Part shown: one piece after another, positions 3,820-17,837 of the stretch
Numbering within the stretch: position 1 is the stretch's first letter
Layout: each line of letters begins with the position of its first letter
NCBI RefSeq assembly: GCF_001677475.2
Contig: NZ_CP015229.1
From: Escherichia coli
Lineage (GTDB): Bacteria > Pseudomonadota > Gammaproteobacteria > Enterobacterales > Enterobacteriaceae
Length of the DNA: 64,000 nt
Strand: one strand, 5' to 3'
The notes under the pieces: model-generated
Databases searched by the model: none
What the model was told of the DNA's origin: nothing
The model's input: only the letters and a program-made list of their open reading frames with translations
Made by a program: the position numbers and the translations under genes

Positions 3820-3987
3820 ATGAACAAATTTATTAAAGTTGCACTGGTAGGTGCAGTACTGGCTACGTTAACTGCATGTACTGGTCATATTGAAAACCGT
3901 GATAAGAACTGCTCTTACGACTACCTGCTGCACCCGGCAATTTCTATTTCTAAAATCATTGGCGGTTGCGGTCCTACTGCACAGTAA
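3820..3987 (+). CDS. yhfL: Small lipoprotein (55 aa)
   Basis: ATG at 3820, 55 codons, TAA at 3985-3987; signal peptide with lipobox LTAC (MNKFIKVALVGAVLATLTAC...); below the ORF-track length cut-off; preceded by AT-rich promoter-like region. Confidence 0.6.
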   Translation: MNKFIKVALVGAVLATLTACTGHIENRDKNCSYDYLLHPAISISKIIGGCGPTAQ

Positions 3988-4231: not shown

Positions 4232-5620
<1,389 letters not shown>

Positions 5621-8325: not shown

Positions 8326-8424
8326 GCATAACGTTGGCGTGAGCATCTTCACGCCAACGTGCTGTTACTTGCCGGAAAACGACCCTATAATCCGTGTAAT
8401 TCATTCTTTATTTCAGGGTCGATT

Positions 8425-9161: not shown

Positions 9162-9206
9162 GGCCGGATAAGATGCGCCAGCATCGCATCCGGCGATGCT
9201 GGCGCG
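9162..9206. repeat. REP (repetitive extragenic palindromic) element between convergent frlR and yhfS
   Basis: ggccggataagatgcgccagcatcgcatccggcg palindromic unit characteristic of E. coli REP sequences. Confidence 0.6.
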
Positions 9207-10360: not shown

Positions 10361-11665
10361 TTAAGCTGGAACAAACAGACCAAGCCAGTAAAGAACATTC
10401 AGCAGAATACCGGTGATCATTACTGCCACGACCGGTGCCGCCATTTTCTGTACCGGACGGCCCAGGGATTCGTTGAAGAAGTAAATGGCAACCGCGATAG
10501 AGAATCCGGTATAATCCGCCATTTTAATTGCTGCGAAAATCGAACCGACCAGCAGCGCCACTTCCATCAGCATATTCATGGCGTTACGGATGTTATCCGA
10601 CGCATTACGCACCGACGGATAGCGCCCCAGCCATTTGCCAATCGAACGAAGCAGTAAGACTTCCGCCGAAATAACCACTGCGCCTAATACCGCTGCAACC
10701 ATCGGATTCGGCGAGAGATAGCCCACCGCATAAACAAAGGTAAAGCCCGCAACTGCATACACGCCAGTGGCTAACGCCGTGGTGGCAATCAACGGCACAA
10801 ACCCCAGTCCGCGCATAAATTCTGCCAGAGCCGCCTGATTAATCAGCGTTTGCGATTGTTCCGGCGTTACGCCTGCGGAATATGCTTTCTCCAGTGTGAA
10901 GATCGAAACTTCGCTACCAGCAAAAATCTTCATGCTGGCAACGGCGGCAATCAATGCTCCCACGATGGCGATATACGGTAAGTTTTTGATAATCCGCGAC
11001 GTGCGTTCTTCAAACACCGAAAGCCCGCTGGCATCAATGTCATTTTCATCACGATGACGCAAGTCGTGAGTTATCGCGATCCCCAGCAGCATCACCATGC
11101 CAATAAAGATTTCGATGGATTCAGGGTTAAGATGTGGGAAATAGCGCACGACGACCACACGGGTCATCAGTACCACCACGGCGGCGATCAGACTTTGCTT
11201 CCAGCCAAACTGGTAGAAAATCGCCACCAGCGGGAACAGTGCAAAAGCTGAAACCACCGGCGAGCTTAATTCCCCCAGGCTACCTAATACATCCACCGGT
11301 AGCGCGGTCAGCAGCTGGTTTACCGGCAACAGGCAAGTAAGGATCTACACGCCCCAGATAGCGCCAAGACCAAACGCCATCAGGCTGTTTATCGCCAGTA
11401 CGCCGAGGATATCGGTAGGAAGAAAGAGTAACCATGCGTTGAGCAGCCCGGTTTTCAGGGTAAACGAGATCCCCACCGAGGCCACAAAACCAATGCTCAG
11501 ACCAAAAGCGATACTCCCCGCCTCGCGACGGTTCATATAGCCTTCAATCAGTTGCGGCAGGATCGGGCGGATACCGTCATGAAAAACGGCCGCCGAGCGA
11601 TGCGCCAGAAGCGATGTCATACCCGTCAGGCACGCCACCACGATAATCTGAATATACAGATCCAT
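10361..11665 (-). pseudogene. yhfT: Putative inner-membrane transporter YhfT interrupted by an in-frame TAG stop
   Basis: Two same-frame ORFs (11345-11665, 106 aa; 10361-11329, 322 aa) separated by TAG (rev-comp of cta at 11345-11347) plus 5 sense codons; 106+1+5+322 = 434 codons, the length I recall for intact YhfT. Confidence 0.6.
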
Positions 11666-12919: not shown

Positions 12920-14142
12920 AGGGTGTCTCCTGCAAACCGGAGGGAGGAAAGAAAAGAGCAACCATTTTGTGGCGGTGGCGCACGGAAAAATTCACACACG
13001 GTAGCCCCCACATCAGAAAGCGTGGTGCGCACACCGAGTTGCGTGTGGACCAGCCCTTGCTGATAAACCAGCACCGGCACCATTTCGCGGGTATGGTGGC
13101 TGTGACCGATTGTCGGATCGTTACCATGATCCGCCATCACGACCAGGCAATCATCTGGCTGCATCACCTCAACAAGCCGGGCAAGGTTTCGGTCAACGAC
13201 CTGCAAACGTTCGGCATAACGTGCGACGTCTTCTGCGTGACCAGCGAGGTCGGTTTCCTGGATATTGGTGCAAATAAACGCCGTCGGATGCGTGTTAAAT
13301 TCGTCGAGGGTGATATCCATAATCCGCTGGCTATCCACCAGGTTTTGCCAGCTCACGCCATAAGGATTGCTGGCAATATCCGCCACTTTCCCCACCAGCA
13401 CGGTTGGTACGCCCACTTCATACAGTTTTTGTGGCACCTGCACTTTATCATCGACACCGTAGCCCATATGCACGACCTGGAAGCCGTTGTCATAAGCGCC
13501 TGAACGCGGCGCATTGATACCAATAAAGCGCCCTTCTTTGCTTTCTGCGGCATCGAGAATGCGTTGACTGTCGGGTAACAGGCCGCCAAATGTAATGACC
13601 CGACCGACCTGTACCTGCTCACGCACAATACGACCAATTTTGATTGCGTCGTCAAAAGAGATCACAGAGAGATTGGCGGTGATGTTATAGACCTGGCCTA
13701 AATCCGCCTCGAGATTATCGCCAATCGCAACCGCCTGATTGACCCACAGAAATTGCAGATCATCGCCACGGCGCTCCACCTGCCAGCCTGCGGAAACTAA
13801 TGCCTGCTCAACACGGTCAATCACATCGCGAAAGGGCATCCGCAGCGGCGGTAACGGGCGCGTGCCTAAAATTTCCTGATGCCCCATAAAGGTATCGCCA
13901 CCTTCATGTTGCAGCTCTGCCACGCCCCAGGTTGCGGAGTCTGACGGCTGCATATCTCCAGGCGCATAACCTAATGCGTTGATTAGCCCCATTTTCTCCA
14001 GCATTGGTAGCTGCAAATGCGGCAACTGGCTCAGGATGTGACCACAGGTATTTGCCCCGGCATCCTGCGGACGCACCAACGTGACATCTTTCATTGCCCC
14101 TACGCCAAAGCTATCAATCACTAACACCACAAATCGCGCCAT
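12916..14142 (-). CDS. yhfW: Uncharacterised phosphopentomutase-like metalloenzyme
   Basis: 408-aa ORF; stop overlaps php start; contains ADHGNDPT motif typical of phosphopentomutase/alkaline-phosphatase superfamily. Confidence 0.8.
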
Positions 14143-15305
14143 TACGCCTCCAGAGGGTTGCCGAGGCTGTCATAACGACCCACAATCTCTGCCGCGCCAC
14201 GCTGAATACCAGACACCAGCACCACATCGCTACGGGTGACAAAAATCTGCGTGCGAAAACAGAGCACCACTGCACTGCTTACCGGATGCTCACCTGCCAG
14301 CGGCAGGGTGTAGTCGATACCGCTGTCATCCACGGCTTTGAGATATGTTTCAGTCACGCTTTGATTCTCTGGCGTAAACACCAACGCATGTTGCGCATGA
14401 CCACGACGGTAATAACCGCCGCCGTAGCAGTAGCTGTCACCACGGAAGTGATGGGAAATTTCGCTCAGCCAAAGCATCGCGATACGTTCAGGCTGGTCTC
14501 CCTGCTGGTTTACCGGAATCGTCCCCGTCAGTGCATGACCGGGTTCGGCATGAGTCACACCGTATTCCGCCAGTAATGGCAGCGAAGTGCAGCTGGTCGC
14601 TGAAGGCGCGTTCAGTTGCTCAATCGCAATACCAGATTTCGCCAGTTGATCCCGTACCTGTATCAGCGTGTGAAGATTCGGTGTCGGCAAAACTTTCCCG
14701 GCAGCCTCATCCCAAAGCAGGCAAGGGAAATGGGTTAGTCCGGCTAAATGCAGCCCCGGCAGTTTCTTAATTTCAGCAACCACCTCGTGCAGCGAATGCT
14801 GTACAAAACCGCTCTCCTGCCCCGGATAAAGAAAATCATCGTCGCTATAAACTTTGAGCAGCACAGACTGGATTCGCCCGGCCTTCACCGCCGCCGCAGA
14901 AACTTCCCGCGCTTTGTCGAGAGTAAACACGGTGATGACGTCGGTGCCCTGTTCAACGGCGTCAGCAACCTGATGACAAGGGATTTGTACCAGATGCCCC
15001 TGATGCGCCACCGGCAAACCAGCGCGGCGCATGACTCGCGCCTCTTTGTAATCCACCGCCACAATGCCGCTGTAGCCCAATGCCAGCAGTTTTTCCGCCA
15101 GCCACGGATTACGACCGAATTGTTTGGTCATCAGATACAGTTCAATGCCGTAAAGCCGTGCCGTCTCAATCAGCCGCTTACCGTTTTCCAGTATCTGATC
15201 CACGTCGATCACCCAGCTGTCCGGGGCGATCTTGCCCTGCTGCCACAGGCTTAGTGCGGCGGAAATCAGCGCCGGGTTCTGGCGTTTCAATGCTTCTACA
15301 AACAT
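14142..15305 (-). CDS. yhfX: Uncharacterised alanine-racemase-like (PLP fold type III) protein
   Basis: 387-aa ORF; 1-nt overlap with yhfW start; recognised as YhfX. Confidence 0.8.
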
Positions 15306-15388
15306 CTTGTTGCCTCGTTTCTGTTCCTTGAGTTAAATATTCATTTTTTTGAATATTTAGGTTGTGCGACGTGGATTTGTCGGGAGCT

Positions 15389-15751
15389 TCAAACCTCTTC
15401 GTTAGCAGCCATCCATAATCCATAAAGGTTGGCCAGCAAATAGCCTTCTTCACACGGGTTAACTTCCAATGCGAATTCCTTCAACAACACCTGATGCAAT
15501 TGCACAACGGCTTGCCAGTGGCTGGATTGCGCCAGCTCTGCCAGCAACTCGTTATCCAGTGGCTCAATTTCTTCACCACGGCGACTGCGCATAAGTGCAC
15601 TCGCCATATGTGTCATCGCCATCGTTCCTTGCTCACTGCGCACCGGCAGATGGCACTCTTTTTCCAGTACGTTGACGACCTGCATCATGCCTTTGCAGAT
15701 GTCCTTATCGATGACCCCTGCATCGCAAAGCAGGTTGAGTCTGGTTTCCAT
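15389..15751 (-). CDS. yhfY: Uncharacterised protein YhfY (120 aa)
   Basis: Track ORF 15389-15871; start trimmed to METRLNLLCDAG. Confidence 0.7.
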   Translation of the reverse strand: METRLNLLCDAGVIDKDICKGMMQVVNVLEKECHLPVRSEQGTMAMTHMASALMRSRRGEEIEPLDNELLAELAQSSHWQAVVQLHQVLLKEFALEVNPCEEGYLLANLYGLWMAANEEV

Positions 15752-15767
15752 TTCAGATGCCTTTGGT

Positions 15768-16673
15768 TTAATAACTGGGTTCCTGTTCCCCACTGACCAC
15801 TCGTTGTTGATGGGCAAGCAGGGCCTGTTTATCAACAACTGCACGCAGCAATTGTTGCATTGGGTAATCATCGACTCGCGTCAGGACCACGGCTTCGGTG
15901 GCCTGTAAAAATCGCGGATCGTCTGTGAGCGGCGTCGCTTCTAATCCCAGCATGGTCAGTTCGTTTTCCGCCACCACGTTCCAGATCACCGCATCAACAT
16001 CGCCTTTAACAATGCGTTGTAAACTCTCGTGATAAGAGAGATCGACACGTTCCACATCACTATCGCCAAAAAAGACATCGGTCATGATTTTCTGATCCGC
16101 CGAACGGTTATCCAGCCCCACGCGCTTCACGTTTGCGGACTCGCCTTTACGGCATATCAACTGGTGTTCGCCAACGTAGGTGTGCGGCCCCAATTCCAGC
16201 GCGAGGCATAACCCTTTTTGCGTGAGATAACTTTCCGCCGCCAGTCGGGAAACCACCGCCATGTCATACACGCCGTTAAGTAAACACTCCACGCGAATAT
16301 CCGCGCCGCGCATATGCGCATAGTAAAAAGGAATGCCATCAAACTGGGCTTTCAATCCGCTCGCTAAACCTTCGTACAAGCGGGTATAGGGCAAAGGCAT
16401 CGCACATACCACGTTGTTGATATCCACATGGCTCAGCAATGCTTTGTTATCCATCTCGACCAGATAACTGCCATTGCGCCCACGGCGTTCAATCCGTATC
16501 GCTCCGCTTGATTCCAGTGTTTTCAACGCTGCCTGCGTCAGGCCAACGGATGAACGGCATTCAGTTGCCAGCTCATCTATGGTTTTCAACCTATTACCGC
16601 ATTTTTCACCCAACAAATAACGGGCCAGCGTCGTGATAACGACGCCTTCTTTTTTGATAAACGTTCGACGCAT
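15768..16673 (-). CDS. yhfZ: Uncharacterised putative regulator YhfZ (N-terminal HTH-like region)
   Basis: 301-aa ORF; first gene of the yhfZ-to-yhfS co-directional cluster; AT-rich promoter region with palindrome upstream. Confidence 0.75.
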   Translation of the reverse strand: MRRTFIKKEGVVITTLARYLLGEKCGNRLKTIDELATECRSSVGLTQAALKTLESSGAIRIERRGRNGSYLVEMDNKALLSHVDINNVVCAMPLPYTRLYEGLASGLKAQFDGIPFYYAHMRGADIRVECLLNGVYDMAVVSRLAAESYLTQKGLCLALELGPHTYVGEHQLICRKGESANVKRVGLDNRSADQKIMTDVFFGDSDVERVDLSYHESLQRIVKGDVDAVIWNVVAENELTMLGLEATPLTDDPRFLQATEAVVLTRVDDYPMQQLLRAVVDKQALLAHQQRVVSGEQEPSY

Positions 16674-16702
16674 AATATATTTTCAATAAAATGAATGTTT
16701 AT

Positions 16703-16722
16703 ATCTTCATTAAAATGAAGAT
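16703..16722. promoter_or_regulatory. Near-perfect 20-bp palindrome in the yhfZ upstream region (candidate operator)
   Basis: atcttcatt-aa-aatgaagat, about 30 bp upstream of the yhfZ start codon. Confidence 0.4.
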
Positions 16723-16791
16723 AAGTGGCAACTGTGAGATGTGGAAACGGCGAGGCGCTTCACATTTTTTCGGATTATTGCAAATGAGGAT

Positions 16792-16817
16792 AAAAAAACC
16801 GGGTTTCCCCGGTTTTT
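16792..16817. terminator. Bidirectional intrinsic terminator downstream of trpS
   Basis: aaaaaaa-ccggg-tttc-cccgg-ttttt: stem-loop flanked by A-run and T-run, 15 bp past the trpS stop. Confidence 0.65.
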
Positions 16818-16832
16818 GGCATTAATGTTAAA

Positions 16833-17837
16833 TTACGGCTTCGCCACAAAACCAATCGCTTCGTACACCGCTTTTAGCGTACGGGAAGCGTGTGCGCTGG
16901 CTTTTTCCGCGCCATCTTTCATCACCTGTTGCAGGAAGGCTTCGTCATTGCGGAAACGGTGATAGCGTTCCTGCAATTCAGTCAGCATACCGGAAACGGC
17001 ATCAGCCACTTCGCCTTTCAGATGACCATACATCTTGCCTTCGAACTGTTTTTCCAGTTCCGGGATGCTCTGGCCCGTTACCGCAGAAAGGATATCCAGC
17101 AGGTTGGAAACGCCCGCTTTGTTCTGCACATCGTAGCGAACTACCGGCGGCTCGTCGGAGTCAGTGACCGCGCGTTTGATTTTCTTCACTACCGATTTCG
17201 GATCTTCCAGCAGGCCGATAACGTTATTGCGGTTATCGTCAGACTTGGACATCTTCTTGGTCGGCTCCAGCAGCGACATTACGCGCGCGCCAGATTTCGG
17301 AATAAACGGCTCCGGCACCTTAAAGATCTCACCATACAGCGCGTTGAAACGCTGAGCGATATCGCGGCTCAGTTCCAGGTGCTGTTTCTGGTCTTCACCC
17401 ACAGGTACCAGATTAGTTTGATACAGCAGGATGTCCGCAGCCATCAGCACCGGATAGTCAAACAGACCAGCGTTGATGTTCTCGGCATAACGCGCAGATT
17501 TATCTTTAAACTGCGTCATGCGGCTCAGTTCGCCGAAGTAGGTATAGCAGTTCAGTGCCCAGCCTAACTGCGCATGTTCCGGTACGTGGGACTGAACAAA
17601 AATGGTGCTTTTCTCAGGATCGATACCACAAGCCAGATACAAGGCCAGCGTATCCAGCGTCGCTTTACGCAGCTTCTGTGCATCCTGGCGCACGGTGATC
17701 GCGTGTTGGTCAACGATACAGTAAATGCAATGGTAGTCATCCTGCATGTTTACCCACTGACGCAGCGCACCCATGTAGTTACCAATGGTCAATTCACCTG
17801 AGGGCTGTGCGCCACTAAAAACGATGGGCTTAGTCAT
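16833..17837 (-). CDS. trpS: Tryptophan--tRNA ligase
   Basis: 334-aa ORF starting [21 protein letters not shown]; class I aaRS with KMSKS motif (KMSKS present). Confidence 0.95.

Follow-up and report, generated by a model that had tools for sequence, protein, structure and literature searches.

The gap between yhfY and yhfX of Escherichia coli contains a perfect 26-bp dyad, here called O3, which is very likely an operator of the regulator encoded in the yhf cluster itself. A first-pass annotation of the window (the whole 64-kb stretch of DNA that was analysed) had noticed an inverted repeat at this place and had considered an internal operator among its possible functions. This reading was strongly supported: the dyad recurs at the yhfZ promoter, and the sites upstream of yhfZ and in the gap are both kept from Escherichia to Xenorhabdus and Providencia, with the yhfZ-proximal site retained as far as Vibrio. 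The most likely binder appears to be YhfZ, which would act as a repressor, perhaps under the influence of YhfY, the PRD protein encoded next to it. On balance, and with slightly more than even confidence, we propose that O3 may be a high-affinity site at which this yhf-specific regulator gates the read-through from the yhfZ promoter into yhfX-yhfS. The features concerned are listed below by window position.

14142-15305, minus strand, yhfX, the first structural gene downstream of O3, encoding an alanine-racemase-like PLP enzyme.
15334-15359, no strand assigned, O3, a perfect 26-bp dyad (inverted repeat) in the yhfY-yhfX gap.
15389-15751, minus strand, yhfY, encoding 120 aa with a single weak PRD-domain match and no CAT domain.
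15768-16673, minus strand, yhfZ, encoding the candidate binding protein, with an HTH_41 winged-helix domain (24-71) and a YhfZ_C domain (75-301).
16676-16701, no strand assigned, O2, the proximal dyad upstream of yhfZ, sense TAAACATTCA-TTTTAT-TGAAAATATA, 31.2 bits.
16700-16725, no strand assigned, O1, the distal dyad upstream of yhfZ, sense CTTATCTTCA-TTTTAA-TGAAGATATA, 33.7 bits.
16726-16731, minus strand, a -35-like hexamer TTGCCA of the presumed yhfZ promoter, its TTG invariant across representatives.
16749-16764, minus strand, a CRP-like site TGTGAagcgccTCGCC, its TGTGA-N6-TC.C invariant in 21 representatives.

The window carries frlR, then the minus-strand genes yhfS-yhfT-yhfU-php-yhfW-yhfX-yhfY-yhfZ, and then trpS-gph-rpe-dam. 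A 1-kb query stretch was found at 95-98% identity in 5,070 of 5,426 complete E. coli genomes. The yhf cluster is present in ~94% of these genomes and is widespread in Enterobacterales. In E. coli Ec1120 (NZ_CP126598.1), only the yhfY-yhfZ part of the query matched (query 604-1001), which suggests a deletion or rearrangement that removed yhfX and the operator. In the strain of the window, yhfT (10361-11665, minus strand) has an in-frame stop at codon 107 (11345-11347), where K-12-like E. coli encodes Leu. This makes a pseudogene of the putative transporter gene here, and the remaining YhfT protein is almost identical to the K-12-like version. Two more perfect G+C-rich inverted repeats flank frlR (8331-8360 and 9175-9205). 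One lies just ahead of the frlR start; the other, between the convergent frlR and yhfS ends, is probably a terminator.

YhfZ was the only protein encoded in the cluster for which Pfam searches found a DNA-binding domain. It matches the Pfam HTH_41 model and not the GntR model; its RefSeq/NCBI name places it in the GntR family. The solved YhfZ structure (2OZZ) covers the C-terminal domain only. The gene yhfY adjoins yhfZ in 80 of 80 orthologous loci. The PRD match of YhfY is weak (E = 3e-4, below the Pfam cut-off), and no RNA-binding CAT domain was found in it by the Pfam domain search. The RefSeq product of yhfY varies by genome between 'PRD domain protein' and 'hypothetical protein'. The mechanical yhfY reading frame (15389-15871) comprises 160 aa and overlaps the yhfZ 3' end, and the annotated E. 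coli start corresponds to 15751 (120 aa, METRLNLL...).

The arms of O3, TAAATATTCA (15334-15343) and TGAATATTTA (15350-15359), are 10 nt each and 100% complementary. They enclose a 6-nt spacer, T6 on the given strand and A6 on the sense (minus) strand. Read on the sense strand, the site is UAAAUAUUCA-AAAAAA-UGAAUAUUUA, followed by ACUCAAGG; the sequence beyond the stem on the other strand is GGTTGTGC. The first-pass annotation had given 9-nt arms at 15334-15357. A repeat was indeed present, but the 9-nt arms sit at 15335-15358, so the quoted extent was off by 1-2 nt, and the true arms are slightly longer, at 10 nt. Its description of the 83-nt gap (15306-15388) as the sole sizeable one inside the cluster was borne out, since the remaining junctions overlap or measure 10-16 nt. 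The yhfY stop codon lies at 15389-15391 and the yhfX ATG at 15305-15303, both genes being on the minus strand, so that O3 is placed 29 nt past the yhfY stop and 28 nt ahead of the yhfX ATG. The Shine-Dalgarno sequence of yhfX, GAGG, is at 15313-15316. Perfect repeats with 10-nt arms and a loop of 0-12 nt occurred 14 times in the window, at about 9 distinct places, against an expectation of 0.93 +/- 1.07 per 64 kb (maximum 5) in first-order Markov simulations of the window. At position 15332, next to O3, the window has G (sense C, aaCTCAagg), as opposed to A (sense TTCA) in three other E. coli strains. The window thereby lacks an extra element resembling a TTCA half-site 7 nt downstream of O3, which is kept in several Escherichia, Trabulsiella and Citrobacter koseri sequences.

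The core of the dyad, TTCA-N6-TGAA, occurs four times in the 64 kb, and three of these copies lie in the two yhf regulatory gaps: 15340-15353 in O3, and 16682-16695 and 16706-16719 side by side upstream of the yhfZ start codon. The spacers of O1, O2 and O3 consist of A and T only, and their arms extend in a similar way, as AT(A/C)TTCA ... TGAA(T/G/A)AT. For a wider comparison, 80 orthologous loci (686 kb) were fetched by alignment of YhfZ homologues from contigs of one genome per species. They represented Escherichia, Citrobacter, Klebsiella, Pluralibacter, Trabulsiella, Buttiauxella, Cedecea, Lelliottia, Superficieibacter, Chimaeribacter, Atlantibacter, Serratia, Photorhabdus, Xenorhabdus, Providencia, Vibrio and Photobacterium. 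The exact core had been defined from the window alone before it was counted in these loci. Of 174 exact cores, 154 fell within 14.3 kb (2% of the 686 kb), upstream of yhfZ or in the yhfY-yhfX gap; since YhfZ served to select the loci, motif and yhfZ co-occur in part by design. Exact cores inside yhfY of Citrobacter, Trabulsiella and Buttiauxella were not accepted as sites. They have G/C-containing spacers and score <12 bits, and we therefore treated them as coding-sequence coincidences.

A symmetric 26-column matrix of ~32 bits was built from the sites. In the window, its only matches of at least 10 bits were O3 (35.7), O1 (33.7) and O2 (31.2). In the 80 loci it matched 112 times upstream of yhfZ, 74 times in the yhfY-yhfX gap and 30 times elsewhere, counts in which only the Vibrionaceae, Xenorhabdus upstream and P. 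asymbiotica matches are independent, as the matrix was trained on the sites it scores. Nearly all of the 30 other matches stood at analogous positions outside the training set, and ~3 weak ones (12-14 bits) lay elsewhere. Conservation analysis, which had been suggested together with the first-pass annotation, gave a clear result. Among 27 species-level representatives, the O3 26-mer was kept at a mean pairwise identity of 0.87, as compared with 0.30-0.31 for the 40 nt on each side, and these flanks were essentially unalignable. O3 was identical in three E. coli strains that diverge from the window at 29-48 positions per kb. The variation that does occur in O3 is mostly at dyad positions 6/21 and 20 (the latter giving TGAT), and it affects only one arm in any given site.

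Enterobacterales retain the order yhfZ-yhfY-gap-yhfX, with the exception of Pluralibacter gergoviae; the gap typically measures 82-130 nt and is larger in a few loci. In P. asymbiotica the gap is 240 nt, and an insertion shifts the matrix-matched site away from yhfX. In P. gergoviae (locus L039, 3519-5010), the regulator genes are reversed, with yhfY first and yhfZ second; one site lies upstream of yhfY, the first regulator gene in this arrangement, and another at -47 from yhfX. The Vibrionaceae have the order yhfZ-yhfY-php-yhfU-yhfT-yhfX, and yhfY abuts php with zero gap. The matrix scan found a site of 22-24 bits ~180 nt inside php in all 5 of 5 Vibrionaceae loci (5456-5481 in L077, 5469 in L078, 5456 in L079, 5470 in L080 and 5526 in L081). 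Synonymous differences amounted to 0.11 at this site versus 0.56 in the rest of the gene, and the windows over the site ranked first and second lowest among 159. The suppressed synonymous change indicates that the DNA sequence itself is under selection within the coding region. Its location inside php also suggests that the distal operator can work without belonging to a promoter.

Extra sites and extensions were found in individual groups. Xenorhabdus has an additional site, TATATCTTCAAAATATTGATAATATT, 104 bp (~10 helical turns) upstream of O1 in ~20 loci (3357-3382 in L051 and 3846-3871 in about 20 other loci). A further TATATCTTCA half-site stands directly ahead of it, and the two together suggest short-range looping. 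In Citrobacter sp. R56 (L008, ~5300-5350), the dyad gains nine complementary bases on each side (ccttcacct ... aggtgaagg), giving 19-nt arms; this extension was absent in the other Citrobacter sequences examined.

The yhfZ promoter region was compared among 21 representatives, from Escherichia to Providencia, anchored on O1. In most Enterobacterales, the first base of the O1 core is at -46 relative to the yhfZ ATG. In the window, O1 begins at the base directly after TTGCCA, O1 and O2 are 24 bp apart centre to centre, and O2 ends 2 nt ahead of the yhfZ ATG. The CRP-like site, which matches the CRP consensus TGTGA-N6-TCACA, is centred 25.5 nt upstream of TTGCCA (counted to its first T), or at ~-61.5 if TTGCCA is the -35 element. 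These features suggest that the yhfZ promoter is CRP-activated. O1 would span the spacer together with the -10 region, and O2 would overlie the start region, which is the layout expected of an autorepressed CRP-activated promoter. The presence of O1 and O2 over the yhfZ core promoter and start, together with the CRP-like site, would imply autoregulation plus catabolite control. Between trpS and yhfZ, there is also a perfect G+C-containing hairpin (16794-16817, AAAAACCGGG-gaaa-CCCGGTTTTT), flanked on either side by runs of A and T. It is apparently the trpS terminator, which could keep transcription of trpS from running on into the yhfZ promoter.

The pattern of half-sites is consistent with a dimeric binder. 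The centres of TTCA and TGAA in O3 are 10 bp apart, about one helical turn, and therefore lie on one face of the helix. A dimer would touch the AT(A/C)TTCA and TGAA(T/G)AT half-sites across the A/T-only spacer. The genes for YhfZ and YhfY were accompanied by the motif through every rearrangement seen, in P. gergoviae as well as in the Vibrionaceae.

Given an operator, we rate a gate as an even or slightly better prospect and an internal promoter as a doubtful but possible one. In the proposed gate, transcription would start at the CRP-dependent yhfZ promoter and run through yhfZ-yhfY, and the regulator on O3 would bar its entry into yhfX-yhfW-php-yhfU-yhfT-yhfS. The block might be exerted by a roadblock, by looping to O1/O2 1.34-1.37 kb away, or by both, and it would be released by an inducer or by a PTS signal passed via YhfY. 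The roadblock or loop is inferred; as the best match to the motif, O3 fits a roadblock, which needs long occupancy. The first-pass annotation had also suggested that the cluster could be split into yhfZY and yhfX-yhfS units. A functional separation of this kind is probably right, but the dividing element would be a protein-operated gate and not an RNA structure.

In the internal-promoter alternative, which the first-pass annotation had considered as well, O3 overlaps a weak promoter of yhfX-yhfS, at which the regulator either occludes polymerase or activates, so that yhfZY and yhfX-yhfS form separate units. The candidate -10 elements inside the palindrome are AAAAAT at dyad positions 12-17 and GAATAT at 18-23. 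We think this possible, at clearly less than even probability. The position of O3 is classical for a regulated promoter, 28 nt and a Shine-Dalgarno sequence before the ATG, and the palindrome contains weak -10-like hexamers (AAAAAT, AATATT, GAATAT). In addition, the spacers of O1 and O2 vary far more than the A6 of O3, whose rare variants often resemble a -10 element (TAAAAT, AATAAT, TATTTT); this suggests that the O3 spacer is under a second constraint. The right half-site of O1 coincides with the likely yhfZ -10, a layout that could be reused at O3. The gap is retained in all Enterobacterales and is longer than an operator and a ribosome-binding site require. Finally, the operon tables reproduced in PMC4448311 split the cluster at this gap.

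Several observations nevertheless led us to favour the gate over an internal promoter. First, the only conserved promoter features, the invariant CRP-like site and TTG, sit at yhfZ, whereas conservation in the gap is limited to the 26-mer; a promoter scan of 14800-17100 found none in the gap on either strand. Second, a palindrome-anchored test in 27 species found -10-like hexamers of the gap only inside the palindrome, and the -35 scores 16-18 nt upstream of the candidate -10s were 2.4-2.6 matches, which is background. Third, none of 26 species has a terminator between yhfY and yhfX. Fourth, the equivalent site of the Vibrionaceae is intragenic, within php and without a gap.

It is improbable that O3 is the operator of another protein, either a global regulator with ArgR-like half-sites or an AT-preferring nucleoid protein. 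ARG boxes are 18-bp TGAAT-N4-ATTCA palindromes, usually two, 3 bp apart. The half-sites of O3 resemble the ARG-box halves TGAATA/TATTCA, and the whole site is AT-rich. However, its geometry is ATTCA-N6-TGAAT instead of TGAAT-N4-ATTCA pairs, the outer half-sites are absent, and the O1 sites carry CTTCA/TGAAG. The motif was missing from the unrelated flanking DNA of the 80 loci and from the remainder of the window (outside the regulatory places, the 64 kb of the window had no match of at least 10 bits, and the 686 kb of the loci had ~3 weak ones), which makes a global regulator unlikely. The motif also tracks yhfZ and yhfY through the rearrangements. Two specific candidates for O3 were rejected: an ArgR site on its wrong geometry and its outer flanks (left AACCT, right ACTCA), and a CRP site on geometry and sequence.

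An RNA function is still less probable. According to this reading, the functional form is the hairpin UAAAUAUUCA-A6-UGAAUAUUUA in the polycistronic mRNA, with a role in processing, stability or control of yhfX translation. The isolated hairpin folds at -7.4 kcal/mol, compared with -0.2 for shuffles (z = -13.6), and it lies in an untranslated spacer 17 nt ahead of the Shine-Dalgarno sequence. In its 96-nt context, however, the fold was unexceptional (z = -1.1), and covariation over the 10 pairs in 33 distinct orthologous sites was 0.051 versus 0.050 in shuffled sites. Pair 10-25 was broken without compensation in 17/33 sites and pair 11-24 in 7/33, and TGAT and TGAAGAT variants occurred alongside an unchanged left arm. 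The copies upstream of yhfZ share the TTCA/TGAA letters despite quite different arms. No Rfam match was found for the hairpin; a search over 15000-17000 at E <= 1 gave only an unrelated weak match at 16764-16835. Judged from these alignments, what is conserved in O3 is the letters and not the pairing.

The weak terminator or attenuator considered in the first-pass annotation, which would end yhfZY transcripts and might include PRD-type antitermination via YhfY, can practically be dismissed: a stem-loop does lie between two cistrons with a PRD protein encoded immediately upstream, but the stem has 1/10 G-C pairs and is followed by ACUCAAGG instead of a U-run, a consensus scan of 14800-17100 found no terminator in the gap on either strand, the gaps of 26 other species had none at the same criteria (a relaxed T-run criterion gave one irrelevant match), there was no scan or Rfam match and no covariation, and YhfY is without the RNA-binding CAT domain that the antitermination version calls for.

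We compared the yhf arrangement with known systems. Auxiliary operators that are located downstream of a promoter and act by looping or as roadblocks include lac O2 inside lacZ, gal OI inside galE and the PurR site in purB. Like these, the yhf motif stands at a promoter and again downstream in the presumed transcribed region. The downstream copy of the Vibrionaceae is embedded in the first structural gene, as in lac O2 and gal OI, and several sites are present per yhf locus, including the extra site of Xenorhabdus. Unlike in these systems, the distance in yhf is 1.34-1.37 kb and the intervening DNA consists of the regulator genes. The predicted downstream operator O3 is moreover the strongest match and not a weaker auxiliary.

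GntR-type repressors encoded first in the catabolic operon that they control, with co-control by CRP, include DgoR (dgoRKADT) and PdhR (pdhR-aceEF-lpd). In yhf, too, a regulator gene comes first, with dyads over its promoter and a CRP-like site upstream. It differs from these operons in having an extra operator between the regulator and the structural genes. The operators of the GntR family are palindromes around a GT-Nx-AC core, whereas no GT..AC core was present in the yhf half-site consensus, AT(A/C)TTCA / TGAA(T/G)AT, which is built on TTCA/TGAA. YhfZ itself consists of HTH_41 and YhfZ_C and has neither FCD nor UTRA, and a separate PRD protein is co-encoded with it.

The likeness to PRD antitermination is superficial. 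As with BglG, SacY and LicT, which act at an RAT hairpin and a terminator, a PRD protein is encoded beside a hairpin-forming sequence ahead of structural genes; in yhf, however, CAT domain, terminator and covariation are all missing, and copies of the motif are found in promoter DNA as well. O3 shares with the ARG box the half-site letters TGAATA/TATTCA and an A/T-rich centre, but orientation and spacing are reversed (ATTCA-N6-TGAAT) and tandem 18-bp boxes are lacking. With a Rho-independent terminator it has in common a stem-loop in an intercistronic gap, but its stem is A-U and neither strand has a U-tract.

We tentatively suggest, as a possibility that we regard as less than even, that YhfZ and YhfY constitute a two-protein PTS-responsive switch. 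It would combine a repressor with a winged-helix and a solute-binding fold with a free-standing PRD module, and it would act at a gate operator inside its own catabolic operon, after the regulator genes or, in Vibrionaceae, within coding sequence, through a roadblock or looping to the CRP-dependent promoter 1.35 kb upstream. We know of no description of PRD-linked regulation by such an intra-operon gate in Proteobacteria.

In the searchable literature, with curated regulon databases outside its scope, we found no description of this motif, of a YhfZ operator or of the regulation of the cluster; a search with the operator sequences returned only an unrelated human paper. The yhf genes were absent from the supplements of the E. 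coli Term-seq (PMC7815308) and SMRT-Cappable-seq (PMC6131387) papers. The operon tables in PMC4448311 list php-yhfSTUWX as one operon and leave yhfZY out. YhfZ is listed as a putative factor in a screen, and other mentions comprise a BIME attenuator note for yhfZ and a gene list. In kind, the predicted O3 is an ordinary dyad operator; the motif is new to the searchable literature.

The 26-bp motif at three positions and the conserved CRP-like site provide a concrete, testable regulatory model for the uncharacterised yhf cluster. If the gate mechanism is true, O3 would be a natural intra-operon operator that divides a regulator from its structural genes. Above all, the motif offers a way into this uncharacterised, widely conserved set of genes: with the yhfZ promoter or O3 fused to a reporter, one could look for the inducer and through it for the pathway substrate, and operator mutants could turn the yhf cluster on.
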